IMG/VR virus record: IMGVR_UViG_2690316161_000023
Coordinates: 1-47,532 of that record
Strand: one strand, 5' to 3'
DNA: 47,532 bases
Source of the DNA: a virus
Lineage: Duplodnaviria; Heunggongvirae; Uroviricota; Caudoviricetes
Shown here in pieces: positions 18,291 through 47,190 of this stretch. A program made the translations under genes and the position numbers. Positions within the stretch are counted from its first letter, which is position 1. Every line of letters starts with the position of its first letter. Under the pieces are notes generated by a model that saw only the letters and a program-made list of their open reading frames with translations, was not told the origin of the DNA and made no database searches.

Positions 18291-18293
18291 AGC

Positions 18294-21337: not shown

Positions 21338-21348
21338 TCGTCTGTTCC

Positions 21349-21855: not shown

Positions 21856-21858
21856 TTT

Positions 21859-23079: not shown

Positions 23080-23093
23080 GGGTTACCTGCGAT

Positions 23094-27303: not shown

Positions 27304-27360
27304 GAATTTTTCCTCTTAGTGACATTATCGAAGCCCCTTATCAAAGGAGCTTCTGTAATG

Positions 27361-28542: not shown

Positions 28543-28545
28543 TAA

Positions 28546-29260: not shown

Positions 29261-29300
29261 AAAACCCGCTCAATGGCGGGTTCTGGTAAAGTTCATGCGC
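29261..29300 (-). terminator. Rho-independent terminator after the ORF6N-domain gene
   Basis: Minus-strand hairpin aacccgc-cattga-gcgggtt followed by ttgttgtttct. Confidence 0.5.
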
Positions 29301-29377
29301 TTGATTCGCCTCGCGATACAGCTTTGCGAAGCGTACCGGAATTGAAGCAGTTTATGTGCAAAAATGCAAGAACTTTT

Positions 29378-29959: not shown

Positions 29960-30114
29960 AATGACGCCCTCTGGTGGTTTCTAAACCATCACCACCGTCA
30001 GGTTCCTAATCATCGGGTGGTGAGACGTACAGGGTTAGGAACTACCGGGAAACCAACCGGCGAGCTTTTCAGCTCCCCCATACGCCCCACCATAATTCAG
30101 ATGTGCGCGTGCAT

Positions 30115-30232
30115 ACGACAATAAAAAACACGCTCGCGGCGTGTGTCTGTCGCGGTCTCTATCCGGGGTTCCTAATCCCGACGCCAGATTTTGCTGGCGC
30201 GTGAGGAATATAGCCCCGGATAACAGATTGAG
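30115..30232 (-). promoter_or_regulatory. Late promoter (pR'-like) with short leader and tR'-like terminator
   Basis: Minus strand TTGACT-18 nt-TATATT (about 30207-30226) just downstream of the Q-like gene; then hairpin acacgc-cgcgag-gcgtgt plus T-run (about 30121-30145). Confidence 0.55.
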
Positions 30233-30787
30233 TCAACAGACAGTTTTTAAATACCCGGAAGAGAATGCATCACGCATCGGCAGATAGAGCATATATTCAG
30301 CAAGATTTAGCCATACATCTACCCGACTGCAGCACGTCCGAAAACACCACTCAGGGTGTGCATCATTTAGCAATTCAGCCATTTTGCGCTTAGTCATCCC
30401 CCGTCCTTCATACCGTTGCCGGAGGACACTAATCAATCCAGGATGCTCTGCTAGCACCTCACTTATGACTCTATCAATACATAACGCCTCTGCATCAGTA
30501 CAATGCGCCAGCCAGGTCTTTTGCTTGCCATTGATCATCTCTCGCAAAAACGCTTCCAGCTCAGGTTTCTCTATTCCCGCTTTTTTCATCCTGCGCAGGG
30601 CTTCATTGACGGCTGTTTTCGTCAATTTTTTGGATGCCAGCAACTGGTTAAACATATTTCCCGTCTTACCGCCGCCAATATACGACCAGCGCCCCCACAT
30701 GCGCAGTTTTCCCTGAATCCAGACACTTTCCAGCGTGGTGAGACGAAGGTGTTCCCCGCTTTTGCCTGTATTTGTTGGGTAAATCAT
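30233..30787 (-). CDS. Late-gene antitermination protein Q-like
   Basis: Contains LRMWGRW-type segment; positioned directly upstream of the late promoter and lysis genes; start taken at internal Met MIYPTNTGK. Confidence 0.55.
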   Translation of the reverse strand: MIYPTNTGKSGEHLRLTTLESVWIQGKLRMWGRWSYIGGGKTGNMFNQLLASKKLTKTAVNEALRRMKKAGIEKPELEAFLREMINGKQKTWLAHCTDAEALCIDRVISEVLAEHPGLISVLRQRYEGRGMTKRKMAELLNDAHPEWCFRTCCSRVDVWLNLAEYMLYLPMRDAFSSGYLKTVC

Positions 30788-31074
30788 AAATAACCTTCCT
30801 TTCTCCAGATTTCTTGTGTGCGAAAAACACCTTCTGCATGCATCAGGCGTAATTCTTCTTTGGTGTAATCGCTGTTTTTTACCCGCCCGTCGATTAAATC
30901 GTGGCATGAGCTACAGGCAATCGCTGCCTGCATATCGTGTGGTTTTGTCGCTGTTCCGCACGTCCCCGCCAGCCTGTAATGCGCCAGCACAGAAGTTTCG
31001 GGATTGTGATTGCAGTAGCCAGGAATTCTGACGGTGCACATCTGCCCCCGCGCCGCTTTACGTAAATCCACCAT
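30784..31074 (-). CDS. YbcO-like nin-region protein
   Basis: 96 aa with conserved Cys/His residues; resembles recalled DLP12 YbcO. Confidence 0.5.
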   Translation of the reverse strand: MVDLRKAARGQMCTVRIPGYCNHNPETSVLAHYRLAGTCGTATKPHDMQAAIACSSCHDLIDGRVKNSDYTKEELRLMHAEGVFRTQEIWRKEGYL

Positions 31075-31673
31075 TACGCAAACTCCAGTAACTGCGCGGC
31101 CACATTTTCGACTTCCTCCGGAGAGGAAAATTTACGGAACAGGATCCAGTTCCACAGCACATTCAGTACAGATTTATAAACCTGCTGAAACTCGGTTTCG
31201 TCCATGTTCGCAAATGCGATAGATTTTGCCCTGCGCCCACGACTACCATCAGGATAAATATGCTCGGTGTAAAATCCGGCCTGAATGGTTACCCATTCGC
31301 GAAAAGCGTCAAATGACTTGAGTAAGGCCGTATCCCGGGTTCTGCAAGTCGCAACGGTGTTAAGGTATTGCTCTGCGGCATCACTCAGGGCTGGCGTATG
31401 TTCCCGACCTACTGATTCGCACAGGAAATCAACGAAACCGGACACCAGTTCTCGTTCGCGAGGCGTGATCGCCCCACCGTTCGGAGTCCAGTAATCGAAT
31501 CCCAGTTGCAGGAGTTTGAAAAAACGCTTGTGGAACGCGTAGTTACGCACTCGCTTAAAGTCCGCGTGTATCCACTCACCTATTTTGATTTGATGCAAAA
31601 AATCGCAACTCTCCGGCGTCGCCGGGAGAAGTAATCCAGAAGAGGTTTGTTTGACCAGTTGTATATGCGCCAT
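31074..31673 (-). CDS. Hypothetical nin-region protein
   Basis: 199-aa ORF upstream of the YbcO-like gene. Confidence 0.35.
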   Translation of the reverse strand: MAHIQLVKQTSSGLLLPATPESCDFLHQIKIGEWIHADFKRVRNYAFHKRFFKLLQLGFDYWTPNGGAITPRERELVSGFVDFLCESVGREHTPALSDAAEQYLNTVATCRTRDTALLKSFDAFREWVTIQAGFYTEHIYPDGSRGRRAKSIAFANMDETEFQQVYKSVLNVLWNWILFRKFSSPEEVENVAAQLLEFA

Positions 31674-31744
31674 CGTAGTTCTCCGCTGGCGCAGTAGAAT
31701 GGGTGTTCAGCCCGTTATGTAGTATACCAGAATTAATGCCAATA

Positions 31745-31957
31745 CTAACAGGATGCTCTGACTCGCAATTCATCCAGCAGTTTATCATTTCCCATAATGT
31801 CACTTACCCTCATCGGTAAAAAAATTGCCTTTCGACCATTACGATACATCATTGATTTTGGGGTTTCAGGGAAGTAATCCATTTCGACTATAACTGACAG
31901 GTCATCACGACGTATGACTGCGTATTTGCTACTAAATAGTTTCTTTATTTTTTCCAC
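31745..31957 (-). CDS. Small hypothetical protein
   Basis: 70-aa ORF. Confidence 0.3.
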   Translation of the reverse strand: MEKIKKLFSSKYAVIRRDDLSVIVEMDYFPETPKSMMYRNGRKAIFLPMRVSDIMGNDKLLDELRVRASC

Positions 31958-32264
31958 GATGCCTCCAGGTTTATAAGTACAAACGGTTATATCTACATAG
32001 AGACAAAAATATTAATCTGAAAAATATTTATTTCACGCCGTATATTTGATTATTTAATGTGCAGGTGCAATGACTTTTATTTTATGTTGTGTATATAATC
32101 AAATATATGGTTATTTTTCACCCTGCGCATTCAGCGCGCAACAAAAAACCCGCCGAAACGCTGAGGGATCCCCATAAATCAGCGCTGAAGCGGGTTAAGT
32201 GCGGGTGCGTTGAGGATGCCTGACACATCAGAGGTGGCGGGAGATTTCTCCCCCGCCAGGTCTC

Positions 32265-32417
32265 TTACTCCTCAGGTTCGTAAGCTGTGAAGACAGCGAC
32301 CTCCGTCTGGCCGGTTCGGATTCGTACCTCGCAGAGGTCTTTCCTCGTTACCAGTGCCGTCACTATGACGGTTAAACAGATGACGATCAGGGCGACTAAC
32401 ATCGCCTTTTGCTGCTT
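32265..32417 (-). CDS. hokD: Hok-family type I toxin (HokD/RelF-like)
   Basis: 51 aa MKQQKAMLVALIVICLTVIVTALVTRKDLCEVRIRTGQTEVAVFTAYEPEE; the ORF call includes an in-frame upstream extension. Confidence 0.8.
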   Translation of the reverse strand, partial: KQQKAMLVALIVICLTVIVTALVTRKDLCEVRIRTGQTEVAVFTAYEPEE

Positions 32418-32520
32418 CATAGCCTGCTTCTCCTTGACCTTTCGGTCCGTAAGAGGCAATCTATATGTGACGAGCATATAGGGGCCTCACTTCGATTTAT
32501 AGTCGGGTGGGGCTTTTATC
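32418..32520 (-). promoter_or_regulatory. hok 5' regulatory region (expected mok/sok-type control)
   Basis: By analogy with hok/sok loci; no promoter or antisense RNA was mapped here. Confidence 0.3.
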
Positions 32521-32824
32521 TATCTGCCGTTGGTGTTCATGCCCGAGGCAGACAGCCTCAAGCACCCGCAGCTATTCTACTTAACTATCCTTTTCCCGCA
32601 AATCGTTTTATCCTCAACGCAAATTTCACCAATCCTCCTCCAACTCGTGTCCCTTACCCTAAGGCTGTTTCCCTCTTTACACAGAAGATAATTAATGTAT
32701 TATTTTTTACAAACAATCAGTTAAGAGCTATCTGTGGGTGGAGTCGCCTTGCGGTAGCTTTTCCTTTTATGCATTGCACACATACATGCTCTAATATATT
32801 CCTATATGTTCAAAAGGACTTTTC

Positions 32825-33757
32825 ATGCACAGCGTTAACTTCTATTCATTCCGTGTGTTAACCCACAAGGGCAGCCGAACCAGCAAAAGACTAAACAACC
32901 TAGGTTTAAGCGATAAAAAAACAGCATATGAATTATTTGTTGAGTATTTTAATAGCTATAAAAACACACCTATTGAATTTGGTCTCTCGAAAACAAAGGT
33001 TTCTCTTGAACAACACACATCACTCACCTTTGATGCTCAAAACCAAGTAATATATGGATATGTAAAGGTTGGGAAATATGGTGAGAGCAGTGAAATAAAA
33101 GACGATAAACTTACTAAAATACGTTATACAACAACTATCAACGATGTAACTCTCAAACAGCGTTACATTTTAATATTTTTGCCAGACAATTTAGAAGAAG
33201 GGATTATAGCATTTCACGCTAATGACAATATTTCTGCTCGCAGCACACTCTCTGATGCATTACTAGACCACTTGAAAACAAAATATAAACTTGAAGCGAG
33301 AATCAATCCCCTTTGCCACAAAAAAATTCCCCAACACATCCTTGATTCAGAATTAAAACAAATAAAAGCCCAAGGTTACAAAGCACCAAAGGACATCACG
33401 GATTCATTCGGAAATAACAAAACAAACATCAAAACTGATTTGGTAATAAAAGCAAATCAAGGCGTATTTGGTAGTTTTAAAGACTTAAAAGACAAAAAAC
33501 TAGGAAATATAATAGAAATAATTGAAGATAAGTGTGACGCAATAAAAGTTAGTTTACAATTAGGCAATAGAACAGTCATTTTTAATTACGACACCATCTT
33601 AAGAAAAGGAATTTCTGCCGAATTAGATGATAACGACTTAAACATAAACGCATCTACAGGAATCCCCGATCTTAAAGCACTTCATGACACTGTTAAAATC
33701 ATTGCGAATGATATACTAAGTGAGTTACATAGTGGTAATGGGGGAGTAAAAATATGA
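32825..33757 (+). CDS. Unrecognised 310-aa protein, first gene of a low-GC two-gene module
   Basis: AT-rich ORF with RBS aaggac before the ATG; opposite strand to the surrounding early operon; overlaps the next gene by 4 bp. Confidence 0.6.
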   Translation: MHSVNFYSFRVLTHKGSRTSKRLNNLGLSDKKTAYELFVEYFNSYKNTPIEFGLSKTKVSLEQHTSLTFDAQNQVIYGYVKVGKYGESSEIKDDKLTKIRYTTTINDVTLKQRYILIFLPDNLEEGIIAFHANDNISARSTLSDALLDHLKTKYKLEARINPLCHKKIPQHILDSELKQIKAQGYKAPKDITDSFGNNKTNIKTDLVIKANQGVFGSFKDLKDKKLGNIIEIIEDKCDAIKVSLQLGNRTVIFNYDTILRKGISAELDDNDLNINASTGIPDLKALHDTVKIIANDILSELHSGNGGVKI

Positions 33758-34011
33758 ACAAGATTAACGTAATGAGTGTAATAAAAAAACATTACACAAC
33801 AATGTCGGATCAACGCGGAAATATTTTACTCGAAGACATCGCAATACACTTCATCATTCCTCTTACATTATCATTAATCATATGTTTTACCTATGGGATA
33901 ATGAAAACCTCTATCGCATCTGTTTTTGTTAACTTTGGAGCAATTACTACCGCACTATTAATGAGCGCGGTTATTATGATCTACGATCAAAAACAAAAAA
34001 ACTGTATTTAA
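33754..34011 (+). CDS. Small membrane protein (two predicted transmembrane helices), probably the 5' part of a longer frameshifted gene
   Basis: 85 aa with hydrophobic stretches IAIHFIIPLTLSLIICFTYGI and IASVFVNFGAITTALLMSAVIMIY; stop follows an A-run. Confidence 0.55.
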   Translation: MNKINVMSVIKKHYTTMSDQRGNILLEDIAIHFIIPLTLSLIICFTYGIMKTSIASVFVNFGAITTALLMSAVIMIYDQKQKNCI

Positions 34012-34309
34012 AATTTCAGACATTGAGGAAAACAACAAACCACGTTCAAATCTAATAATTTTAAATAATAATAAAACCGTATATGAGCAATTATGTCACA
34101 ATGTTTCTTATGCCATATTAACATCTGTAGCGTTAGTTATTTTTTCGGTTGCAATATATTTTCTCCCAGAACCCCCAAGTGAATTAAAAAAATGGTATTT
34201 CGCAACCCCTGCTTACATAATCAGTTATTTAGCATACTCATCCTTCTTTTTTACCGTAGTAACATTCTTGATGGTTATAAAAAGATTTAGCACAATATTA
34301 GATAGTTAA
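34001..34309 (+). other. Open +1-frame continuation encoding two more transmembrane helices, no start codon
   Basis: About 102 stop-free codons in AT-rich DNA (...YAILTSVALVIFSVAIYFL...YIISYLAYSSFFFTVVTFLMVI...); removing one A from the run at about 33995-34001 would fuse it to the 85-aa ORF. Confidence 0.5.
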
Positions 34310-34318
34310 ACAATGGAA

Positions 34319-34342
34319 CCGCCGCCCTTTCGGGCGGCTTCC
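34319..34342. repeat. GC-rich hairpin, copy 1
   Basis: gccgccc-tttc-gggcggc; near-identical hairpin at about 35384-35406. Confidence 0.5.
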
Positions 34343-34370
34343 TGATGTTCTAAGGGTGCAGAAATCCCTC

Positions 34371-34430
34371 CGGTTAAGGATTAAATTTTTAACAGAGCTA
34401 AATTTAATTATTCAGTTCTGGATTTTGTCG
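34371..34430. repeat. ~60-bp leader/promoter-like repeat, copy 1
   Basis: ccggttaaggattaaattttt...ttaattattcagttctggatt, about 80 percent identical to 35635-35700. Confidence 0.5.
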
Positions 34431-34821
34431 CCCTGCGTATCCGCGCTTTCGCGTTACGCTCAATCTGAATTAGCTTTTCTATATTTTTTCGCCTTTCCCG
34501 CTCCTCCTGACGCAAGAGCCTTACATCATCTGCCAGTCTGGTTTCTCTTTTCGCCACAGAGAGCATCCAGTCAAATGGTTCCACAACTGCACCGCAGATT
34601 TTACAGCGGACCTGACGCTCTTTTTCGTCAACCCGGACAGAGGCGTGATGACAATATGGTCTTTCCGATGGCTCATAAAGAAAATTAACCTGATTACGAG
34701 GGTCATCCTCTTTTACCGGAAATAAAACGATATTGCTTAACTCATCCTCTGGTTTTATTTCCATGCTCCTCTCCTTTGATGCGAATGCCAGCGGTAATTG
34801 AAGCCTGATAGCTAATTTCAC
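34408..34821 (-). CDS. Hypothetical protein with a putative zinc-ribbon
   Basis: 137-aa ORF with YCHH and CKIC motifs; likely true start at internal Met (MEIKPEDE) with RBS ggagaggag. Confidence 0.35.
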   Translation of the reverse strand: MKLAIRLQLPLAFASKERSMEIKPEDELSNIVLFPVKEDDPRNQVNFLYEPSERPYCHHASVRVDEKERQVRCKICGAVVEPFDWMLSVAKRETRLADDVRLLRQEERERRKNIEKLIQIERNAKARIRRATKSRTE

Positions 34822-34895
34822 TCACAGTACCGCCTCCTGAAAATTTAATGAACAATTCAATACGTTCTTTGGTAATAGTGGTCATGTGTTACTCC

Positions 34896-35159
34896 TTAAC
34901 CCGCAGTGCTTTCAACTGATGAGGGGAACAAAATCTTTTCATCAAACCCTGCATTCATATCATGAACAGCAACACACCAATCCATCGACGAACGATTATC
35001 AAGAGCCTCCATGATTTCATCCATGCGGCGTAGGTCATACAGGTAAATGCTTTTATCGCCAATGGTGTAAAAGCCAATTTTTTTCGGTGATGGACAGCGA
35101 TCAAGAACTTCCTGTAATTCGTTCAACCATGCCCGTTCTTTTTTTGTCAAAGTTGCCAT
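34896..35159 (-). CDS. Small hypothetical protein
   Basis: Start taken at internal Met MATLTKKERAW of the 117-aa ORF, which otherwise overlaps the preceding gene. Confidence 0.3.
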   Translation of the reverse strand: MATLTKKERAWLNELQEVLDRCPSPKKIGFYTIGDKSIYLYDLRRMDEIMEALDNRSSMDWCVAVHDMNAGFDEKILFPSSVESTAG

Positions 35160-35160
35160 A

Positions 35161-35379
35161 TCAGTTTTCCTTATACGGATTAATTTTATTGTGCAGTGTG
35201 TTGAATGACGCCCATACCACGTCGTTATACAATTCAGTAACTGGCTCAATTATTTTCCCGATTGCCCAGACAAAAATTAGAGGGGATATCGGTATCATCA
35301 ATACGATAAACAGAATGAGAAACAAAAATTCTGTCGCCCTACTTTTTTGCGGATATTCTTTTCTGAATAATGTAGTCAT
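35161..35379 (-). CDS. Small membrane protein
   Basis: 72 aa with hydrophobic stretch FLFLILFIVLMIPISPLIFVWAIG; begins just after the GC-rich hairpin. Confidence 0.35.
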   Translation of the reverse strand: MTTLFRKEYPQKSRATEFLFLILFIVLMIPISPLIFVWAIGKIIEPVTELYNDVVWASFNTLHNKINPYKEN

Positions 35380-35383
35380 TTCT

Positions 35384-35406
35384 TACCGCCCTTTCGGGCG
35401 GCCTCC
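35384..35406. repeat. GC-rich hairpin, copy 2
   Basis: ccgccc-tttc-gggcgg. Confidence 0.5.
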
Positions 35407-35411
35407 CGACA

Positions 35412-35624
35412 TTAATCGTTGTGGTAACTCATGGCTTCATTTGCAGCATCAACCGGATCAACCTCCCACCAGCAATAATTTGGTGCGTTTCCTTCAGGTG
35501 TCCACGGTTCCAATTCATTTTTTGCCACATTCTCGTCGCCAGTAATTTTAAAAATCTGCTCAGAGAATTTTTTCACCCACTCGTTATATTTTTCAGTGTT
35601 AATAATTTTCTGTGTATTTGACAT
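35412..35624 (-). CDS. Small hypothetical protein (cassette gene)
   Basis: 70-aa ORF with RBS ggaggt; flanked by repeat copy 2 upstream and hairpin copy 2 downstream. Confidence 0.4.
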   Translation of the reverse strand: MSNTQKIINTEKYNEWVKKFSEQIFKITGDENVAKNELEPWTPEGNAPNYCWWEVDPVDAANEAMSYHND

Positions 35625-35634
35625 AGATATACCT

Positions 35635-35700
35635 CCAGTTAAGGATTAAATTTTATTTACAGTGCTGAACTTAATTATTCAGATTTGGATTATGCTTTCT
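35635..35700. repeat. ~60-bp leader/promoter-like repeat, copy 2
   Basis: Matches 34371-34430. Confidence 0.5.
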
Positions 35701-35729
35701 CTTCACGAAGTTCCGATTGTTAATTTGGC

Positions 35730-36167
35730 TCACAACAGCACCTTCTGAAAATTACCCTGATAGAAAGCCAGTACACGCTGCATAGCTTCGCTCTTCCGGC
35801 ACTCGCTACAGATTATGTTTTGACGCCTGTCGTAGCGGCGTATTTCTCCGTCTGGTAATGGCCAGATAAGGTCAGGATCAACCACAGATGGTTTCTTCAG
35901 ATTTGCCCTTGAGAGTTTTTTGCGGGCGTTTTGCCAGTCCTTACGCGCCTGTTCAGACGGGAATAACCCGTAACCAGAGTTGTATACATCGCCACTGGCA
36001 ACCAGCTCTCTGGCAAGAGCACTCATCAGATATCTTGTCGCACCTGTCTTGGCTTCCAGTTGCCGTAACGTCTCGCGTCCGCTCTGGCGCACGAGTTCAA
36101 CAACCTGCCCCTTAATTTTTTCCCGCTCTTCTTGTGTAAATACTTTTGCCATAAGCGCCTCCGACAA
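35730..36167 (-). CDS. Hypothetical early-region protein
   Basis: 145-aa ORF. Confidence 0.3.
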   Translation of the reverse strand: MSEALMAKVFTQEEREKIKGQVVELVRQSGRETLRQLEAKTGATRYLMSALARELVASGDVYNSGYGLFPSEQARKDWQNARKKLSRANLKKPSVVDPDLIWPLPDGEIRRYDRRQNIICSECRKSEAMQRVLAFYQGNFQKVLL

Positions 36168-36980
36168 TCACTTTTCCGACACAATACGACCGGATGAATC
36201 GACAATCTGTCGGACAATATCCCGGTGTTTGTTCAGCTCCCGCAGCGCGGCGCAGACACGCTCCCACTTCTGGACATGATTTTTCGCCCGACGCAGTTCG
36301 CGATTTGCCATATGCAGCGATGGTAAAAACAGATTATCCGCTTGCGTTTCAGTGAACGATGGCAACGACTTCACAATGTCCGCTACAGTTTCTGTTTTAA
36401 TATCTTCCTGTGTAGCAGCTTCCTGTACTGGTAACGCAACACCTGCTGGCTGAGGAAGGGGTTTACCATCAGTTTCCGCTACCGATGCTGCTTTCGGCTC
36501 TGCTGGTAAATTATCGCCCGGTATGCAGTAACGAAATTTACCGCCCTGATTTACGCGAATCAGACGACCTTTGCTGATTGCCATTGCCAGCGTTGAAGCC
36601 ACTTGGCGTGATGTGGTACCAAACAATGTAGCCAGCTCATCAGCCGTTTGTGGTCCGCGTTGTTCAATCGTTGCGGTTAAATCGCACTCTGAGATTTTCG
36701 CTACTGTTGCTGTGGTGGTTTCTTCCGGCAGTTCTGCCTGCGCTGGCTGTTCCTGCTGAACGTTGTTATCAGCCACACGCCAGGTGTACGCGCTTTTATC
36801 AACAAAACCAGCCTTTTTCAGTTCCCATAGTTCGTTCAGCACTTCTTCACGACTGATATCAAGTCGCGCAGCAAGTTCTATGGATGTGGCTTTTCCCATT
36901 GCTTTCAGTGCGTCAAAAACAGTCTCCATTAAAACTTCCTCCCGGTAAAAATTACTTCTCAATTCCTGGCTGACCAACAT
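36168..36980 (-). CDS. Hypothetical protein with two winged-helix-like segments
   Basis: 270-aa ORF downstream of the replication genes. Confidence 0.35.
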
Positions 36981-37698
36981 TCGGACGCCAGCTCTCCCAG
37001 TTAAAATTCACCCATCGCCCTCCGTTCATGGTCATGCGATCCATAATCCGCTCGCCGAGCAATGTTTTCATGGCCTCATAGTTCAGGTTTGTCAGCATCC
37101 CCACGCTGCGCATCGACGCTGTCCGGCGATCAACAATCTGGTGCAGCACCACCTGCTCGTTTTTCGTCTCGCGCTGAATGCCAATTTCATCAAGAACCAG
37201 CAGATCCACTTCGCACAGCTCCCGCAAAAATTTTTCGCCTGACTGCCCGTCGTCATAGCTGGCGTGCAGGGCGCTCATAACATCAGCCACGGTAACCACA
37301 ATCACTGTCTGACCGTCTTTCAGCAGGCGATTCCCTATAGCTGCCGCTAAGTGATTCTTCCCGGTACCAGGTTTTCCGCTGAACGCAAAATTTGTACACC
37401 CGGTCATCAGTTCATCGGCGATGGATTTCGCCTGGCTTAACGCGTATCGCTGGCCGTCGTTCAGCACCTGGTAATTCGCAAACGAGCATTTACGGTGCAA
37501 CGGCTGGATGCCAGAGCGATTCAGAATTTTTTCCACCCGCAACTGACGATTCAGGCGGTTGATCTCCTCGCAACGTTTCTGGCCTTCAGCAAGTTGCCAC
37601 TCACGCCACTCCGCAACCGTTCTGAATGGGGCGGTTACATGTGGTGGGGTCAGTCTGCGGATACGCTCCAGAACGCCTCCTGTCGCAATATTTTTCAT
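36952..37698 (-). CDS. DnaC-like helicase loader (AAA+ ATPase)
   Basis: Walker [16 protein letters not shown] and Walker B LLVLDEIG. Confidence 0.8.
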
Positions 37699-37704
37699 GG
37701 TCTG

Positions 37705-38493
37705 TTACCCCCTGAAGCCTGGCGGGATCGCACTGTCCGGCAACGAGACGGTGTTAACCTGTCGGAGCAACGTCTCAGGCCGAACACCTTTCGGCGCGAA
37801 CAGGCCCTGGTATTCATTGGCGATGCTGTGTCGAATCACCTGCTCAGGTGTAAAACCCTGCTGACGGAATTTTTCCAGTTCCCGTATCGCCCCGTTAGCG
37901 CCCTGCTCCGTTCGAATCGGTTTTCGCAATGCCTGTCTGAACCGGACCCACTCATGCCAGAGTGTTTCCGGCAACCAATCGGGCAGCTCAATAGCCTCCG
38001 GCTCGAATTTTTTAGACGCTCGTTTTTGGCGAGGGGGATTTAGGGGGAGATCAGTATTTAGATCTTCCTCTTCCTCTTCCTCTGGTAACGCTTTTTGATC
38101 CGTTTGTGTAACGCTGGCAGCGTTACCTTTTCGTTTCAGTTCGCGTATTTTTGTAACTCGCTCGTTTGTAACCGCCCGTTTTTTTGAGCTTTTTCCGTTA
38201 TGACGTTCAAAGTTAGGTAGAGAAAGCCCAACGTCATTTTCGACCAGCCATCCAACCTGAATTAACGCATCAGCAAAACCAGCCATAAAAGTGATGCGAT
38301 CTATTGCACTTTTTGTAACGCCGCGAGCGTTACAATCTGCATTACCGTCTATCATTTGTTGATCCGCCCATGCCCAGAAGCGAATAACCTTCCCTAATGC
38401 GGCATCTGGATCAATATTCAGAATCTCAGCAAGCCTGAATATTTCCGGCTTATCCGGCGTAATAACCTCGAGCTTTATCCAGTTTGAAGCCAT
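37705..38493 (-). CDS. Replication initiation / replisome organiser protein
   Basis: 262-aa ORF immediately upstream of the DnaC-like gene; acidic linker. Confidence 0.5.
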   Translation of the reverse strand: MASNWIKLEVITPDKPEIFRLAEILNIDPDAALGKVIRFWAWADQQMIDGNADCNARGVTKSAIDRITFMAGFADALIQVGWLVENDVGLSLPNFERHNGKSSKKRAVTNERVTKIRELKRKGNAASVTQTDQKALPEEEEEEDLNTDLPLNPPRQKRASKKFEPEAIELPDWLPETLWHEWVRFRQALRKPIRTEQGANGAIRELEKFRQQGFTPEQVIRHSIANEYQGLFAPKGVRPETLLRQVNTVSLPDSAIPPGFRG

Positions 38494-38570
38494 TTGTTTT
38501 CACCTTGTAACGCTCGCGTCGTTACATTTAACTGATACCGAACAAAACAATCCGGCACGATTAATTTCAA

Positions 38571-38996
38571 TCAATGCACTACGACAGAATCGCCGGGCGA
38601 CCCACCACCGCTGAAATGTGCTTTCCGGTAAACGGCCTGGACTGCATCATCATGCGCATCAATTGCCGTACTCAACGCTTCCTGCGCCGCCAGTAATGCA
38701 CGGCGTTCCAGGGTATCGAAGATGCAGAGTCGGTGACGCAGCTCGCGCGGAAGAATTGCCAGAACCGCAGGGATCAGTTTCTGAATTTTTTCCCTTTGCG
38801 CTTTCGTTTCACCTTTCAACCAACGGTGATAGATATTCTGCTGATTGTTCCAGTCCTTGCCTGGTACAAGGGGCAATTCGCCGCCCCCCCCCTGGCGCAG
38901 ATATTCTTCAGTAATTGCGTTAGCGACCCACGCCTGCCCTTTTTCGGCTGCCAGGGCTAACAACACTGATTCGATGTGCTTATGCCTGATTTTCAT
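38571..38996 (-). CDS. YdaT-like protein (CII-position; reported toxin in Rac)
   Basis: 141-aa ORF following the Cro-like gene; resembles recalled Rac YdaT. Confidence 0.5.
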   Translation of the reverse strand: MKIRHKHIESVLLALAAEKGQAWVANAITEEYLRQGGGGELPLVPGKDWNNQQNIYHRWLKGETKAQREKIQKLIPAVLAILPRELRHRLCIFDTLERRALLAAQEALSTAIDAHDDAVQAVYRKAHFSGGGSPGDSVVVH

Positions 38997-39235
38997 GAAT
39001 CAACCGCTCCTATGCTGTTTTCGCTATGCTTACCGTCTGGGGGGAATACATCGTCAAGTCCACAATGAGCGCCAAGCCGATTAAGGGTAGAAACAATTTT
39101 TCTGCACTCCTCTAGTCCAGGGGTACGAAAATTTGCTTCGTAATTTGCCAGTCGGCTTTGTATCCACCCTAACTGAACAGCAAGTTGTCTTTGAGACAGC
39201 CCAAGCTGTTTTCGATATGTTGAAATTTTGTTCAT
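38993..39235 (-). CDS. Cro-like HTH regulator (YdaS-like)
   Basis: 80 aa with HTH (LGLSQRQLAVQLGWIQSRLANYE); divergent from the repressor gene. Confidence 0.6.
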   Translation of the reverse strand: MNKISTYRKQLGLSQRQLAVQLGWIQSRLANYEANFRTPGLEECRKIVSTLNRLGAHCGLDDVFPPDGKHSENSIGAVDS

Positions 39236-39331
39236 TGAAAACCTCCGATGACAATTTTAAACACACCTTGTGTTATATGGTCAAGCTATTTTGTGTTTTA
39301 TGTAAATCACGATTCGTGATACAAGGATGCA
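39236..39331. promoter_or_regulatory. Immunity-region divergent promoter/operator region
   Basis: Between divergent repressor and Cro-like genes; palindromes aacacaccttgtgtt (about 39250-39264) and atcacgattcgtgat (about 39296-39310). Confidence 0.45.
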
Positions 39332-39751
39332 ATGGAAAAAGAAAACGAAAAAATTGCCGCTAGTAGGCTCAATGACAAAATTGCAATGCGTCTTAAAGAG
39401 CGCAGGCAGAAGCTTGGTTTATCTCAAGGAAAACTTGCTGAAATCTGCGGATGGACGCAATCGCGTATAGGTAACTATGAGGCGGGCAGCAGAAATGTTG
39501 GAGTGCATGACGCTGTCATATTGGGAAAGGCACTTGGCATATCTCCTCCTGAGCTCCTCTTTGGAGAACAGGAATCTTCTGAATTGTGGTTAAATGAATC
39601 CCAACGAAAACTTCTTGAGTTGTTTAACCAGCTACCGGGCTCAGAACAACAACGAATGATTGAGCTATTTGAAGTCCGGCTAAAAGAAATCGATGAGTAT
39701 GTAGAAAAATATTTGAGAGGCAGGCTTAAAGATAATCCCCCACCGGAGTAA
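39332..39751 (+). CDS. Prophage repressor (XRE-family HTH, RacR-like)
   Basis: 139 aa with HTH (LGLSQGKLAEICGWTQSRIGNYE); divergent from the Cro-like gene. Confidence 0.65.
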   Translation: MEKENEKIAASRLNDKIAMRLKERRQKLGLSQGKLAEICGWTQSRIGNYEAGSRNVGVHDAVILGKALGISPPELLFGEQESSELWLNESQRKLLELFNQLPGSEQQRMIELFEVRLKEIDEYVEKYLRGRLKDNPPPE

Positions 39752-39781
39752 TGATCTTGCTATCACAGTAATATGCCAATC

Positions 39782-39806
39782 AGCCCGCTATCAGCGGGCT
39801 TTTTTG
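39782..39806 (+). terminator. Rho-independent terminator after the repressor gene
   Basis: agcccgc-tatca-gcgggct followed by tttttgt. Confidence 0.6.
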
Positions 39807-40056
39807 TACCATCATCATATGACACCCACCACAAAACACATTCCGTGTTGACACAAGAAAACGTATTGTGTTTAATAAGCATATCCAAACAACGCCCCAC
39901 CAGAGAACGGCAGGACAATACCTCGAGTTATCCAGCCACTGAACAGGGCTAAGTAGCCAGCCTGAGGCATACGAACATGACGGCAGTTGTTGATTGATAC
40001 AAAGCGCAGTAGATAAAACGTTCCGCCACCCGGCGTTAAGGGGAAATGAGGTCAAC

Positions 40057-40209
40057 ATGGATACTATCGATCTTGGCAACAACGAATCTCTGGTATGTGG
40101 CGTGTTTCCCAATCAGGACGGCACATTCACCGCCATGACGTATACCAAAAGCAAAACGTTTAAAACCGAAGCTGGCGCACGTCGCTGGCTTGCCAGAAAT
40201 ACTTGCTAA
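40057..40209 (+). CDS. Small early protein (YdaF-like)
   Basis: 50 aa from internal ATG with RBS gagg; MDTIDLGNNESLV... Confidence 0.4.
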   Translation: MDTIDLGNNESLVCGVFPNQDGTFTAMTYTKSKTFKTEAGARRWLARNTC

Positions 40210-40617
40210 TCCATTATTTGGATTAATTCAATATTCTCGCTGTAGGGGTATAGCAGAAACCACCAAAGCCCGGAGGTGGTGAAATAAAACCGGGCACAAC
40301 ACGAAGGCGCATTTCCGATATCCATAAAGAGTCGGTCTTGTCTGTTAAATTTAAATGGTGGGAGTGCGCCTCCGGTTGTAAATAACGACATTGCTATGTG
40401 TAGTCTTTGGCGGCATCAGTTCTACTCCGTGGCTGCCCTGCCGCCCCTTTTTAAAGTGAATTTTGTGATGCGGTGAATGCGGCTAAGCGCACGCGGCACA
40501 GTTAAAAGCATCAGTGTTATGGGTGGATTATCCGGCGTTAATTGTTAACTGGTTAACGTCACCTGGAGGCACCAGGCACCGCATCGACAAAATTCATTTG
40601 TAAAAATGGAGATAATT

Positions 40618-40839
40618 ATGATTGCTCATCACTTCGGAACTGATGAAATACCACGTCAGTGTGTGACCCCTGGCGATTATGTTCTTCATGAAGGTCGGAC
40701 ATATATCGCCTCGGCAAACAATATTAAAAAGCGAAAACTTTATATTCGTAGCCTGACTACAAAAACATGCATTTCTGACTGCATGATTAAAGTCTTCCTC
40801 GGTCGTGATGGTTTACCTGTAAAGGCGGAGTCATGGTAA
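40618..40839 (+). CDS. kilR: KilR-like killing protein (cell-division inhibitor)
   Basis: 73 aa [29 protein letters not shown]... matching recalled Rac KilR; start at internal ATG with RBS ggag. Confidence 0.65.
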
Positions 40840-41009
40840 TGACTAAGAAAATAAAATGTGCTTATCACCTTTGCAATAAAGAAATTGAAGAAAGCAAAAT
40901 CATTACAAGACCACTTCATTTCATGCGTGGAGTTATACCAACGACGGAAATGAAAAAATATTGTAGTGAAATCTGTGCCGAAAAAGACCAGATGGCACAC
41001 GAACTTTAA
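40839..41009 (+). CDS. Small Cys-rich protein (YdaE-like)
   Basis: 56-aa ORF below the ORF-track size cut-off, found by eye; start overlaps the kilR stop. Confidence 0.4.
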   Translation: MTKKIKCAYHLCNKEIEESKIITRPLHFMRGVIPTTEMKKYCSEICAEKDQMAHEL

Positions 41010-41083
41010 TTAACTGACTATCCGAAACTGAATTTATGCCAGCAATGGCAGGGATTCGCTCAACCTTAATTAAGGAGAAAAAC

Positions 41084-41359
41084 ATGATTACCAGTTATGA
41101 AGCCACTGTTGTTACTACTGATGACATTGTTCACGAAGTTACCCTGGAAGGAAAGCGTATTGGCTACGTGATTAAGACAGAAAATAAAGAAACCCCATTC
41201 ACTGTGGTTGATATCGACGGTCCATCAGGCAACGTTAAAACACTTAACGATGGTGTTAAAAAAATGTGTCTGGTGCACATAGGAAAGAATCTGCCCGCAG
41301 AAAAAAAAGCCGAATTTCTGGCAACTCTGATTGCAATGAAATTAAAAGGTGAAATCTGA
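41084..41359 (+). CDS. RacC-like small protein
   Basis: 91 aa from internal ATG with RBS aaggag; directly upstream of recE. Confidence 0.45.
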   Translation: MITSYEATVVTTDDIVHEVTLEGKRIGYVIKTENKETPFTVVDIDGPSGNVKTLNDGVKKMCLVHIGKNLPAEKKAEFLATLIAMKLKGEI

Positions 41360-41458
41360 AAAAAAGAAAGCCTGCACACTGTGCAGGCCTGAGTGAAGAA
41401 CCTGGGACATTTATTCATCACTCGCATTAATTTTAATCTGAGTTGAGGTTAAAAAGCA

Positions 41459-44134
41459 ATGAGCACCGATAAACAAGTTTACCCACTGTATTACGAAGCA
41501 AAAAATGACAAAGTAAGAAAACGTCTCGGTATTAAAGGCGGTTTCTACTGGGCTGAAGCGAAAAAATTATCCATTGCCATCTCCCGTGGTGCTGTTGCGA
41601 TTGACGATGCTGGCTACGATGAAGATGACTTTAAAAAACCTGTTCGCGTCAATTTGCCCGTTGTTGATGACCTTCCACCAGAAGGCGTATTTGATACGGA
41701 ATTCTGCAACCGTTACGAAAAAGGCGGGGAAGATGGCATCACAATGGTATTTATCGCGCCCTCATCCTCTGCGCAGGACAAGCCAGCCAGCACTGACAAT
41801 ACCAATGTTAATGGCGAAGACATGACGGAGATTGAGGAGAATATGCTACTCCCGATTTCCGGTCAGGAGCTGCCCATTCGCTGGCTTGCTCAACACGGCA
41901 GCGAAAAACCGGTAACGCACGTTTCACGCAACGAACTACAGGCATTACACATTGCACGAGCTGAAGAACTACCAGCTGTTACTGCCCTGGCTGTTTCCCA
42001 CAAAACCAGCCTGCTCGACCCGCTGGAAATTCGCGATCTCCACAAACTGGTGCGTGATACTGACAGAGTTTTCCCTAATCCAGGCAATTCAAGCCTGGGG
42101 CTGATGACTGCTTTTTTCGAAGCATACCTGGACGCAGACTACACCGATCGCGGTCTGCTGACAAAAGAGTGGATGAAAGGAAACCGTGTTTCACGCATCA
42201 CGCGCACGGCTTCCGGCGCTAATGCTGGCGGCGGGAACCTCACCGATCGCGGCGAAGGTTTCATTCACGATCTGACGTCACTGGCGCGCGACGTAGCCAC
42301 TGGCGTACTGGCTCGTTCAATGGACGTGGACATTTATAACCTTCATCCGGCACACGCTAAACGTGTCGAGGAAATTATCGCTGAAAATAAACCGCCCTTT
42401 TCTGTTTTCCGCGACAAATTCATCACCATGCCTGGCGGGCTGGATTATTCCCGCGCCATCGTGGTTGCGTCCGTAAAAGAAGCACCAATTGGGATCGAGG
42501 TTATCCCCGCACACGTCACTGAATATCTTAACAAAGTACTGACTGAAACTGATCATGCCAACCCTGATCCAGAAATCGTGGATATTGCCTGCGGTCGTTC
42601 CTCTGCCCCGATGCCGCAGCGTGTAACAGAAGAAGAAAAACAGGATGATGAAGAAAAACTGCAACCATCTTGCGCAATGGCAGATGAACAGGCAACGGCT
42701 GAAACAGTGGAACCGGATGCAACTGAACATCATCAGGACACGCAGCCGCTGGATGCTCAGTCACAGGTAAATTCTGTTGATGCGAAATATCAGAAACTGC
42801 GGGCAGAACTCTATGAAGCCCGGAAAAACATTCCGCCCAAAAATCCTGTCGATGCAGACAAATTACTGGCTGCCTCTCGCGGAGAATTTGTTGAAGGGAT
42901 TAGCGACCCGAATGATCCGAAATGGGTTAAGGGAATTGAAACCCGAGATTCTGTGAACCAGAACCAGCCCAAATCGGAACAAAACAACCAGAAAGCGGAA
43001 CAAAACAGCCAAAATGCACAGAAAAATGAGCCAGAAACGAAACAATCTGAACCAGTAGCGCAACAGGAACCGGAAAAAGTCTGTGCCGCCCGCGGTCAGA
43101 GCGGTGGCGGCAACTGCCCTGATTGTGGCGCGGTGATGGGCGACACCACATATCAGGAAACCTTTAATGAAGAAAATCTGGATGAATCTCAGGAAAAAGA
43201 TCCGGAGGAAATGGAAGGCCCTGAACATCCGCACAATGAGAATGCTGGCAGCGATCCGCATCGCGATTGCAGTGATGAAACTGGCGAAGTCGCAGATCCC
43301 GTAATCGCAGGAGACATAGAGCCTGGTATTTATTACGGAATTTCGAATGAGAATTACCACGCGGGTCCCGGTGTCAGTAAGTCTCAGCTCGACGACATTG
43401 CTGATACTCCGGCTCTGTATTTGTGGCGTAAAAATGCCCCAGCGGACACCACAAAGACAAAAACGCTCGATTTAGGAACCGCTTTCCACTGCCGTGTACT
43501 TGAACCGGAAGAATTCAGTAACCGCTTTATCGTGGCACCTGAATTTAACCGCCGTACAACCGCCGGAAAAGAAGAGGAGAAAGCGTTTCTGATGGAATGC
43601 GCAAGCACAGGAAAAACGGTTATCACTGCCGAAGAAGGCCGGAAAATTGAACTCATGTATCAGAGCGTTATGGCTTTGCCGCTGGGTCAATGGCTTGTTG
43701 AAAGCGCCGGACACGCTGAATCATCAATTTACTGGGAAGATCCTGAAACAGGAATTTTGTGTCGGTGCCGTCCGGACAAAATTATCCCTGAATTTCACTG
43801 GATCATGGACGTGAAAACCACAGCGGATATTCAACGATTCAAAACGGCTTATTACGACTACCGCTATCACGTTCAGGATGCATTCTACAGTGACGGTTAT
43901 GAAGCACAGTTTGGTGTGCTGCCAACTTTCGTTTTTCTGGTTGCCAGCACAACTGTTGAATGCGGACGTTACCCGGTTGAGATTTTCATGATGGGCGAAG
44001 AAGCAAAACTGGCAGGCCAGCAGGAATATCACCGCAATCTGAGGACCCTGGCTGACTGCCTGAATACCGATGAATGGCCAGCTATTAAAACGTTATCACT
44101 GCCCCGCTGGGCTAAGGAGTATGCAAATGACTAA
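41459..44134 (+). CDS. recE: Exodeoxyribonuclease VIII (RecE)
   Basis: 891 aa; C-terminal nuclease domain; overlaps and precedes recT. Confidence 0.8.
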
Positions 44135-44936
44135 GCAACCACCTATCGCAAAAGCCGATCTGCAAAAAACCCAGGGAAACCGTGCACCAGCAGCAGTAAA
44201 AAATAACGACGTGATCAGCTTTATTAATCAGCCATCAATGAAAGAGCAACTGGCAGCAGCTCTCCCACGCCATATGACGGCTGAACGAATGATACGTATC
44301 GCCACCACAGAAATTCGTAAGGTTCCGGCGCTAGGAAACTGTGACACCATGAGTTTTGTCAGTGCGATCGTTCAGTGTTCACAGCTCGGCCTTGAGCCAG
44401 GTAGCGCCCTCGGCCACGCATATTTACTGCCTTTTGGTAATAAAAACGAAAAGAGCGGTAAAAAGAACGTTCAGCTAATCATTGGTTATCGCGGCATGAT
44501 TGATCTGGCTCGCCGTTCTGGTCAAATCGCCAGCCTGTCAGCCCGTGTTGTCCGTGAAGGTGACGAGTTTAGTTTTGAATTTGGCCTTGATGAAAAGTTA
44601 ATACACCGCCCGGGAGAAAACGAAGATGCACCAGTGACCCACGTCTATGCTGTCGCAAGACTGAAAGACGGAGGGACTCAGTTTGAAGTTATGACGCGCA
44701 AACAGATTGAACTGGTGCGCAGCCAGAGTAAGGCTGGTAATAACGGGCCATGGGTAACTCACTGGGAAGAAATGGCAAAAAAAACGGCTATTCGTCGCCT
44801 GTTTAAATACCTGCCTGTCTCAATTGAAATCCAGCGTGCAGTATCAATGGATGAAAAGGAACCACTGACAATCGATCCGGCAGACTCCTCTGTATTAACC
44901 GGGGAATACAGTGTAATCGATAATTCAGAAGAATAA
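44127..44936 (+). CDS. recT: RecT single-strand annealing protein
   Basis: 269 aa from internal ATG ([17 protein letters not shown]...). Confidence 0.85.
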
Positions 44937-44980
44937 TTCAGCCTGGCGGTGTAATGCACCGCCAACGTGAGACAGTTTTT

Positions 44981-45187
44981 ATGACAAAAATTATGAGATA
45001 TGACGATGTTAAACCATGTCCGTTTTGTGGTTGTCCATCTGTTACGGTGAAAGCAATTTCAGGATATTACCGGGCAAAATGCAACGGATGCGAATCCCGA
45101 ACTGGCTATGGTGGAAGTGAAAAAGAAGCACTCGAAAGATGGAATAAACGAACTACTGGAAATAATAATGGAGGTGTTCATGTATAA
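44981..45187 (+). CDS. ralR: Restriction alleviation protein (Lar/RalR-like)
   Basis: CPFCGC...CNGC zinc-ribbon-like motifs; start taken at MTKIMRY. Confidence 0.55.
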   Translation: MTKIMRYDDVKPCPFCGCPSVTVKAISGYYRAKCNGCESRTGYGGSEKEALERWNKRTTGNNNGGVHV

Positions 45188-45368
45188 AATTACTGCCACT
45201 ATTGAAAAGGAAGGTGGCACTCCTACTAACTGGACAAGATATTCAAAATCTAAATTAACGAAATCAGAATGCGAAAAAATGCTCTCAGGGAAAAAAGAAG
45301 CAGGCGTTTCCAGAGAGCAGAAAGTAAAGCTGATAAATTTTAATTGCGAGAAACTTCTGTCCTCGTGA
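45180..45368 (+). CDS. Small protein (YdaC/RcbA-like)
   Basis: 62 aa from ATG preceded by RBS ggaggtg. Confidence 0.4.
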   Translation: MYKITATIEKEGGTPTNWTRYSKSKLTKSECEKMLSGKKEAGVSREQKVKLINFNCEKLLSS

Positions 45369-45468
45369 GTTGCATTATATACAAATTAGAACTTCATAGC
45401 TGATTATTAAAAATCAACCACATCCGCCAGTATTCTGTATATTTACTGGCGGTCATATCGTAAGAGGT

Positions 45469-45756
45469 ATGGCAATGAATCTTGTGACACTCAAAACGTG
45501 GGGAAAACTCAGATATCCGGATAACCCACCATCAATATCAACGCTGAGACGATGGGCAAGGAATGGAAACATTTATCCTGCACCTGAACTACACGGGAGG
45601 AGTTACAGGGTGGTTCCGGAGGCTTTCTATATCAACCCAAATAAGGTTGATACCGATATAACACACCATCAGCCTAATGGGCGACAAGGGAGAGACAGTC
45701 CGTTACTGGAGAAGTTAAAACATGCAGCGGAAAAAATACGATCCCAATTTGCCTAA
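45469..45756 (+). CDS. Excisionase-like protein
   Basis: Small basic protein immediately upstream of and overlapping the integrase gene. Confidence 0.55.
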   Translation: MAMNLVTLKTWGKLRYPDNPPSISTLRRWARNGNIYPAPELHGRSYRVVPEAFYINPNKVDTDITHHQPNGRQGRDSPLLEKLKHAAEKIRSQFA

Positions 45757-46798
45757 AAACTTAACATATCGAAGGAGGGACAAAGCATATTACTGGCGCA
45801 ACCCTCTGACGAAAGAAGAATTTACACTAGGTAAAATTTCAAGAAGAGATGCAGTAGCGCAGGCAATTGAAGCAAATCATTATATATACAAAAACTACTC
45901 TCCTGCTGCCTTAATTGAAAAGCTTAAAGGGTTCGACTCATTTACTATGGCAGACTGGATTGAACGTTACAAAACGATTCTTATAAGGAGAAAAGTGTCC
46001 AGAAATACTTATAAAATTCGGGTAAATCAACTGGAGACAATAAAAGAAAAATTGGGGGAAATTTTACTGACAGAAATAACCACTCGCCATATTGCCGAGT
46101 TTCTTGATTTGTGGATTGAAGGAGGGAAAAACACAATGGCAGGATCAATGCGTTCTGTGTTGTCTGATATGTTTCGTGAGGCCATTGTTGATGGACGTAT
46201 ATCTCAAAATCCAGTAACGCCAACAAGAGCACCGAAAATAGTAGTTACAAGAGAACGACTGAAACTAAAGACATACAACTGCATCAGGGAGGCAGCAGAT
46301 CAACTTCCGGCATGGTTCCCATTAGCTATGGATTTAGCCCTTGTAACAGGACAACGTCGCGAAGACATAACGAATATGCGCTTTAGTGATATTTATGATG
46401 ATCGTCTCCACATCAGGCAAATTAAGACAGGAATGATGATTGCTATCCCCCTGTCACTCAGCCTTCCTGTCGCTGGTCTACGGCTTGGTACAGTAGTTGA
46501 ACAGTGCCGCCTGGTAAGCCGGGGAGATTATCTAATCAGTGCCGGGATTAGAAAAAACAGCCCTGACGGCAGCATTCACCCGGATGGCCTGACAAAAAAA
46601 TTTGTCGCAGCCAGAAAATTAACAGGTATCCAGTTCAGTGAAAACCCACCAACTTTTCACGAGATCAGAAGTCTGGCTGGACGATTGTACAAAGAAACAT
46701 GTGGAGAAGAATTTGCTCAGCGTCTACTTGGCCACACATCGGAGAAGACAACAAAAATGTATCTTGATGAGAGAGAAAAAACGTACTTACTACTCTGA
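45722..46798 (+). CDS. Tyrosine integrase (lambda Int family)
   Basis: 358 aa; lambda-Int-like N-terminus ([25 protein letters not shown]) and C-terminal catalytic region (...[15 protein letters not shown]); adjacent to the att repeat. Confidence 0.85.
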
Positions 46799-46928
46799 TT
46801 TTAACGTAAATGGATTGTTAAATGTATTTTGGTTGTGATATAACCAAAAAAGACCGGAATACAGAAATTCGAGTAAATTTCGGGGAATTTCGGGAAGACG
46901 TTTGCAACTAATTGATTTTAAATACAAT

Positions 46929-46960
46929 TAAAAAAAGACCGAATACGATTCCTGTATTCG
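46929..46960. repeat. attL: core inside the sdsR terminator stem (core about 46937-46955)
   Basis: aaaaaaagaccgaatacgattcctgtattcgg, imperfect match to 1065-1098. Confidence 0.6.
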
Positions 46961-47032
46961 GTCCAGGGAAATGGCTCTTGGGAGAGAGCCGTGCGCTAAA
47001 AGTTGGCATTAATGCAGGCTTAGTTGCCTTGC
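46930..47032 (-). ncRNA. sdsR: sRNA SdsR (RyeB)
   Basis: Minus strand reads GCAAGGCAACTAAGCCTGCATTAATGCC...terminator hairpin and T-run, matching the recalled SdsR sequence. Confidence 0.65.
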
Positions 47033-47121
47033 CCTTTAAGAATAGATGACGACGCCAGGTTTTCCAGTTTGCGTGCAAAATGGTCAATAAAAAGCGTGGT
47101 GGTCATCAGCTGAAATGTTAA

Positions 47122-47160
47122 AAACCGCCCGTTCTGGTGAAAGAACTGAGGCGGTTTTTT
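47122..47160 (-). terminator. Hairpin terminator downstream of yebY
   Basis: Imperfect GC-rich hairpin flanked by A- and T-runs. Confidence 0.4.
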
Positions 47161-47190
47161 TATTGGAAATCAAAAGGCTATTTTAGGTAA

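Follow-up and report, generated by a model that had tools for sequence, protein, structure and literature searches.

A prophage in the sdsR terminator hairpin of Escherichia coli rebuilds sdsR and splits its antisense partner ryeA

The window, i.e. the complete stretch of 47,532 nucleotides that was analysed, carries pphA near its left end and sdsR (ryeB) followed by yebY at its right end, with a prophage of 45.9 kb in between (Table 1). The borders of the prophage are marked by a 19 bp direct repeat, GACCGAA[C/T]ACGATTCCTGT, that occurs in two places only, with a C in the left copy and a T in the right copy and a spacing of 45,862 bp. This core was searched for with the pattern GACCGAAYACGATTCCTGT, allowing up to three mismatches, on both strands of the whole 47.5 kb window; shuffled controls gave a mean of 0.01 matches, and two matches were reached in 0 of 100 shuffles. 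Read on the minus strand, the right copy is CGGTCTTTTTTTAATTG and the left copy is CGGTCTCTTTTTATC.

Table 1. Coordinates of the features of the window (position 1 is its first nucleotide).
Feature	Position	Strand	Basis or remark
pphA	277..936	-	Pfam Metallophos; K-12 annotation; beside the left core
Displaced native ryeA promoter region	990..1029	+	100% K-12 identity; placed from the transcription start in PMC6610125
Orphaned RyeA 5′ part, nt 1–64 of 272	1030..1093	+	nt 46–64 are the core
attL core copy	1075..1093	+	GACCGAACACGATTCCTGT; host-type C at position 8
Prophage body	1094..46936		45.9 kb, complete-looking; xis and int at right end
Phage P′ arm	1094..1260	+	Repeats TTTCGAG / TTTTCGGGAA / TTTCAGG-type, ~1206–1250
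Prophage-borne regulatory RNAs	30013–30213, 32418–32567, 40395–40446, 45186–45364		Rfam
Excisionase	45469..45756	+	Pfam PF07825 Exc, 6.5e-14; annotated 'excisionase' in RefSeq lysogens
Integrase, lambda-family tyrosine, 358 aa	45722..46798	+	Pfam domains, identity
Phage P arm	46799..46936	+	13 P arms aligned, Int 62–100% identical
sdsR (ryeB), intact	46930..47029	-	Rfam RF00111, 118.1 bits (gathering 38), model 1–100/100
attR core copy	46937..46955	+	GACCGAATACGATTCCTGT; T at position 8
Promoterless RyeA 3′ part, nt 46–272	46937..47163	+	K-12 alignment
yebY	47532–47191	-	DUF2511; right of sdsR

The element looks like a complete temperate phage of the myovirus type, and its early region is lambdoid. 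Its morphogenesis genes are of the myovirus type (terminase, portal, major head, sheath, tape measure, baseplate and invertible tail fibres), and the early region holds genes for a repressor, an O-like replication protein, RecE/RecT and RalR/RalA. Genes for head, tail, lysis-side and early functions are thus represented. The integrase contains the domains Arm-DNA-bind_1 (PF09003, 2.1e-06), Phage_int_M (PF22022, 3.4e-10) and Phage_integrase (PF00589, 1.1e-16), all above the curated cut-offs, and the motifs HEIRSL and GH(x9)Y are readable in its sequence. With HK022 Int it shares 41% identity over 97% of its length, and its stop codon lies 138 nt before the right core. This domain architecture, a core repeat at both ends and a contiguous attP together point to a lambda-family att module. 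Within the prophage, Rfam also recognizes a C4 antisense RNA with its a1/b1 targets, isrK, sok, DicF and the RalA antitoxin, the latter adjoining ralR.

The stretch from 2013 to 10338 is arranged as A-B-A′(inverted)-B. An inverted repeat of 1834 nt (2013–3846 versus 6176–8009) is 100% complementary, and a direct repeat (3830–6180 versus 7988–10338; spacing 4158) is more than 90% identical. The arrangement looks like a Mu G-type invertible tail-fibre segment present in both orientations, each with a copy of the baseplate genes, and it may reflect either a genuine duplication or inversion heterogeneity that misled the assembly. Other lysogens cover only about 85% of the half of the prophage that holds this stretch. 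A Gin/Pin-type serine invertase gene (~1400–1987, minus strand) is frameshifted: the ORF of its N-terminal Resolvase domain ends at 1598, and a different frame holds the conserved C-terminal part (GRFFFHVMGALAEMERELIVERTKAG...). This gene is either a pseudogene or the product of a sequencing error. Because of the frameshifted invertase and the oddly duplicated tail-fibre region, it is not certain that the prophage is inducible.

In the empty-site alignment that an earlier note on this DNA had proposed, window positions 900–1093 and 46956–47200 were joined and found to reproduce the K-12 MG1655 intergenic region between pphA and yebY with 100% identity, the core lying inside sdsR. Of 5426 complete E. 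coli genomes, 5190 contain the joined 1 kb flanks without an interruption. The reciprocal join (46456–46955 followed by 1094–1593) is contiguous in the phage record PP818812.1, with 91% identity across the junction; attP of that phage reads ...TACAATTAAAAAAAGACCGAATACGATTCCTGTTTTCGTCAAC... and contains both the T of the core and AATTAAAAAAA. At core position 8, attP has T and attB of K-12 has C, while the lysogen has C in attL and T in attR. The same holds in IMG/VR, where, among the matches listed, the E. coli-type attL junctions all have C and attR of this phage lineage has T. The T at attR and the AATTAAAAAAA that precedes it are phage-derived, as judged from the contiguous attP, and in front of the attL core stands the host-type sdsR tail, AAAAAGA, which reads UCUUUUU on the minus strand. 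Since attL keeps the C and attR has the T, strand exchange is placed to the right of position 8, within ACGATTCCTGT, which is centred on the hairpin loop GATTCCT. Going by the boundaries of attP/attB identity, the two stem arms are probably inverted core-type Int sites with the 7 nt loop GATTCCT as the overlap region. The record PP818812.1 is deposited as 'Actinobacillus phage vB_Apl-pPE4', and its Int is 97.5% identical to that of this E. coli prophage. The host label looks doubtful because the matching attB, the sdsR terminator, is enterobacterial.

The junction of int, attR and sdsR is present in 228 of the 5426 complete E. coli genomes (4.2%), O111:H8 and O55:H7 strains being examples, and almost all of the ~236 interrupted sites are thereby explained. 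A scan for the core in IMG/VR returned at least 120 contigs, and those loci with the core followed by sdsR and more than 1.5 kb of upstream sequence, 63 in number, were counted. Among the matches listed, an Int homologue lies directly upstream in 61 of the 63, ending ~90–215 nt before the core, with identities to the Int of the window from 100% down to 49%. The P′ flanks of these loci, again among the matches listed, vary greatly from one another, a sign of many phage lineages. A Salmonella phage record with an Int of 73% identity has an identical core, GACCGAATACGATTCCTGT, and an Int scan of genome contigs gave two loci, in E. coli and Shigella. As Int homologues down to 49% identity and the Salmonella relative use the same core, the choice of attB is a property of the clade, its host breadth being taken from IMG/VR loci that carry no host identity.

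These observations bear on whether the element might instead be a fixed, defective island that borders sdsR by chance, and not a phage integrated by Int at an att site in sdsR. The frameshifted serine invertase and the duplicated or inverted tail-fibre and baseplate region would suit such an island, which we nevertheless consider quite improbable: neither att copy is damaged, int and xis have their full length, and genes for head, tail, lysis-side and early functions are present. In addition, a sequenced phage genome contains exactly this attP, most E. coli genomes show the precise empty site, and diverse integrase sequences are tied to one and the same core. Integration by Int at sdsR is thus the reading that we adopt below.

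At attR, sdsR is matched over the full length of its Rfam model, including the terminator hairpin, and is adjoined by yebY. A terminator scan finds the hairpin GGACCGAATAC-AGGAATC-GTATTCGGTCT, followed by TTTTTTT. The body of sdsR and the side of its σS promoter are host DNA, and the end supplied by the phage comprises the last ~18–29 nt, depending on the point of strand exchange within the core. The full-length Rfam match and the contiguous attP in PP818812.1 bear out the proposal of the earlier note that an intact sdsR with a phage-supplied 3′ end lies next to int, and the host-type end is indeed displaced by about 45.9 kb to the side of pphA. On the minus strand the two ends read CGGTCTTTTTTT for the right copy and CGGTCTCTTTTT for the left copy, as had been given. 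The core had also been equated with the sdsR terminator stem. It does lie in the hairpin, but it does not span the whole stem: it consists of the 3′ arm, the 7 nt loop and the first 2 nt of the 5′ arm.

In the 3′ arm of the stem the phage changes a G to an A, replacing a G·U pair by A-U, and the U-tract of sdsR is UCUUUUUUU in the lysogen versus UCUCUUUUU in the host. The energy of the terminator stem is −15.8 kcal/mol in both the host and the phage-supplied version. A strengthening of the stem by the phage T was rejected, since the energy is the same with either pair and only the U-tract differs. Folding likewise led us to reject the idea that attP or the hybrid attL forms a terminator-like hairpin that shields pphA or int. 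The values are −4.5 kcal/mol for attP (z +0.63) and −7.9 kcal/mol for attL (z −0.43), and no stable minus-strand hairpin was found at attL by folding.

The 13 aligned P arms share a conserved TGTGATATAAC. Three tandem repeats of ~10 bp, AAATTCGAG, AAATTTCGGGG and AATTTCGGGAA, lie at ~46865–46897 and have the general form AAWTTTCGRG. Their variable positions co-vary in all three copies between lineages (CGAGG three times, CGGAA three times, CGGAC three times or CGTG three times). From their position and co-variation these repeats are probable candidates for arm-type Int (or Xis) sites, a reading that fits because Int has an arm-binding domain. An IHF-consensus-like CAACTAATTGATT is located at 46905–46917. 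The repeats of the P′ arm are weaker than those of the P arm, with one match that contains a mismatch, at 1230. The motif ATTTCGGGRA is not enriched across the window (7 found versus 7.6 expected).

In the P arm the left half of the core also occurs as an additional copy, AAAAAAGACCGGAATAC, at 46846–46862; in one lineage this copy is an exact AAAAAGACCGAATACGA. Together with an A-run (AAAAAAGACCGGAATACAGAA) it extends over 46846–46866, ~90 bp upstream of the true core, and it is kept down to ~62% Int identity. A role for this half-core copy and its U-run as a back-up terminator on the minus strand was considered and rejected, as folding of 46935–46830 is no better than that of shuffled sequences (z −0.48).

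In K-12 (NC_000913.3), ryeA occupies 1923066–1923337 on the plus strand (272 nt; b4432) and sdsR 1923104–1923207 on the minus strand, and the start of RyeA is consequently found 38 nt past the 3′ end of sdsR, on the side of pphA. RyeA is a σ70 transcript of ~270 nt, the starts of which were mapped with primer extension and RACE; its 3′ ends fall at +261 to +270 (Choi et al., 2019, PMC6610125). Both the genome coordinates and this mapping agree with the statement in the earlier note that RyeA overlaps sdsR and starts on the pphA side; the alternative named there, a RyeA that lies entirely on the yebY side, is not what is found. Through the 100% K-12 alignment, the transcription start corresponds to window position 1030. 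From our own reading of the sequence we infer that the extended −10-like TGtTATGGT at 1014–1022 is a candidate for the −10 element of ryeA.

The consequence for ryeA is that nt 1–45 are found at attL only, nt 46–64 are duplicated as the core and nt 65–272 are found at attR only. RyeA of K-12 is thus not a contiguous unit in the lysogen. Its promoter and 5′ part are separated from the remainder by 45.9 kb of phage DNA, as the earlier note had anticipated. The 3′ part contains the stretch complementary to SdsR except for the last few nucleotides, and it shares a terminator with yebY at ~47125–47160. Downstream of the orphaned 5′ part, no plus-strand terminator is predicted before position 1903.

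Rfam RF00101 (SraC_RyeA) matches window positions 46926–47070 over the complete model (1–145/145) with 179.1 bits, and this could be taken to mean that RyeA is intact on the yebY side and that nothing is split. The model, however, covers only nt 35–179 of the 272 nt K-12 ryeA (L001 1101–1245), where it scores lower, at 175 bits. The phage-derived AAUUAAAAAAA is a better fit to the first 11 positions of RF00101 than is AGAUAAAAAGA of K-12, and for this reason the split RyeA scores above the intact one (179 versus 175 bits). Because the model spans nt 35–179 only, a match to it says nothing about the integrity of RyeA, and an annotation that uses it scores a split RyeA as intact. With the transcription start mapped to the pphA side, 38 nt past the 3′ end of sdsR, and with this coverage of the model, an intact K-12-type RyeA on the yebY side is refuted, and we attach next to no credence to it.

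A different possibility is that RyeA is split and at the same time replaced. A promoter of the phage within the P arm, or transcription that continues from int, could produce a hybrid antisense RNA, its 5′ end phage-derived and its body that of RyeA, which pairs with SdsR, and the balance between the two RNAs would then be retuned. The phage DNA contains a promoter-like TTTGCA-16-TACAAT at 46901–46928, identical in phage pPE4, with a predicted start at ~46935, at the edge of the core, and the stretch from the int stop codon to the core contains no predicted terminator on the plus strand. On the other hand, the promoter scan of the region returned two promoter-like sites versus 1.3 expected by chance, the 13 aligned P arms conserve neither TTTGCA nor TACAAT, and there is overlap with the IHF-like site. 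Read-through is disfavoured by the fact, established for lambda, that int is normally silent in a lysogen. A conserved phage promoter for a hybrid RyeA was rejected, the site not being conserved across the clade. The replacement of RyeA survives as a rival that deserves serious attention, even if we lean against it, and what we describe as the absence of RyeA may really be an altered RyeA, because the promoter-like site or read-through from int could give such a hybrid.

The split of ryeA without replacement, which we prefer, is accompanied by a change at pphA that goes beyond the earlier note. In K-12, pphA is transcribed mainly from the sdsR promoter via read-through of the sdsR terminator (Choi et al., PMC6610125), and an older candidate pphA promoter is located still further toward yebY than the sdsR promoter (PMC6610125). 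Both are now 45.9 kb away from pphA, which has lost its promoter. Between the left end of the phage and pphA, neither a minus-strand promoter nor a stable terminator is predicted, and pphA may therefore depend on read-out from the phage. For sdsR, a mutation of the −10 element of ryeA in K-12 raised the output of the sdsR promoter ~4-fold, the interference acting in cis. Deletion of the sraC promoter increased SdsR only ~1.5-fold (Fröhlich et al., 2012), which suggests that the phenotype may be slight. From experiments in K-12 and Salmonella we infer that RyeA would be lost, SdsR would rise and pphA expression would change in the lysogen.

We consider it very probable that the locus as a whole is to be explained by site-specific integration into an attB in the sdsR terminator, with sdsR rebuilt, ryeA split and the above effects on expression. 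On this explanation, a phage with a lambda-type Int and Xis has integrated by site-specific recombination at the Rho-independent terminator hairpin of sdsR, its P arm bringing its own copy of the sdsR 3′ end. Because the P arm carries this end, sdsR keeps its full length in the lysogen, its stem being as stable as before and its U7 tract uninterrupted. The antisense gene ryeA (sraC), which is convergent with sdsR, is cut in two because its start is 38 nt outside sdsR, on the pphA side. Its σ70 promoter and first 45–64 nt stay at attL and would read into the P′ arm of the phage, giving a 64 nt leader that runs toward the 3′ end of the oppositely oriented invertase gene. The body of RyeA complementary to SdsR, together with its terminator, stays at attR, separated from its native promoter. 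Native full-length RyeA would no longer be made, and the collision-type interference of the ryeA promoter on sdsR would be lost, so that SdsR would become higher and earlier. In parallel, pphA would be deprived of read-through from the sdsR promoter, and its expression would hang on read-out from the left end of the phage. Excision would restore the K-12 sequence exactly. This explanation is supported by the unique core, the K-12-identical joined flanks, the contiguous attP and the lambda-type Int with an adjacent Xis, and further by the co-varying P-arm repeats, the IHF-like site, the full-length SdsR and the unchanged stem energy.

The phenomenon itself has already been published. The sdsR/ryeB locus is known from the literature as a recurrent attachment site, and 'RyeB' is used as a label for an integration site in island catalogues. 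The ryeA/ryeB hot spot of Salmonella (Balbontín et al., 2008, J Bacteriol, PMID 18390661) is cited in PMC7380047, PMC3333887 and PMC3603311. According to PMC7380047, PhiW104 (DT104) integrates in the last 23 bp of ryeB in Salmonella, its lysogeny alters the 5′ part of ryeA, and RyeA is lower and RyeB higher (Balbontín, 2008). Our comparison follows the papers that cite this work. On that basis, the two sites are alike in that att lies in the last ~23 bp of ryeB/sdsR, internal to ryeA (sraC), and in that the phage regenerates the 3′ end of sdsR and replaces the 5′ portion of ryeA. In the window, too, the core falls in the last ~23 bp of sdsR, with foreign DNA directly 3′ of the gene. The imbalance of SdsR and RyeA predicted here matches the PhiW104 report, as cited, and the K-12 ryeA-promoter mutants. 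As far as the citing papers describe the Salmonella site, the present case differs in having an E. coli host with a K-12-type locus, a RyeA start ~35 nt closer, and pphA as a neighbour that is co-transcribed with sdsR and is thereby a third gene affected. Our literature searches found no paper on the E. coli case, its frequency or the uncoupling of pphA. The E. coli case extends and quantifies the Salmonella principle of 2008 and is not the discovery of a new kind; the frequency and the uncoupling of pphA are incremental.

With the modules of lambda and HK022 the element shares an Int with arm-binding, core-binding and catalytic domains, xis upstream of int, int transcribed toward attP, tandem candidate arm-type repeats and an IHF-like site that lies between these candidates and the core. 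Unlike in lambda, attB is the terminator hairpin of an sRNA and not the gal–bio intergenic site, and unlike in both phages the P arm carries a conserved extra half-core copy. The site also resembles those at the 3′ ends of tRNAs, tmRNA and sRNAs (P4/P22-type; ryeE, Bobay et al., 2013, PMC3603311) in that a conserved, hairpin-forming RNA 3′ end is used. As at those sites, the phage carries a replacement copy and the gene survives. In contrast to those sites, the sdsR locus is bidirectional, and the regeneration of SdsR necessarily truncates the antisense RyeA.

A more far-reaching proposal, which we regard as unlikely, is that integration at sdsR is a regulatory switch and not the use of a neutral landing pad. 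Three effects are conceivable. The prophage would disarm both the RyeA antitoxin and the brake that the convergent promoter puts on the 'toxin' sRNA SdsR, it would uncouple pphA from RpoS control, and in the prophage state the xis–int transcript would gain a 3′ extension perfectly complementary to SdsR. If so, SdsR and RNase III could retro-regulate int and tie excision to stationary-phase signalling, as a mirror of lambda sib, and the retention of this att choice down to 49% Int identity would reflect selection for the switch effects.

SdsR is a core RpoS-dependent sRNA that regulates porins, tolC, mutS and yhcB, and to our knowledge RyeA is its only antagonist. About one in 25 complete E. 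coli genomes carries the junction, and in these strains native RyeA should be missing and pphA should be disconnected from its promoter. Lysogens at sdsR would thus be natural and reversible 'ryeA promoter knockouts', which matters when the SdsR/RyeA biology of K-12 is carried over to wild or pathogenic strains.
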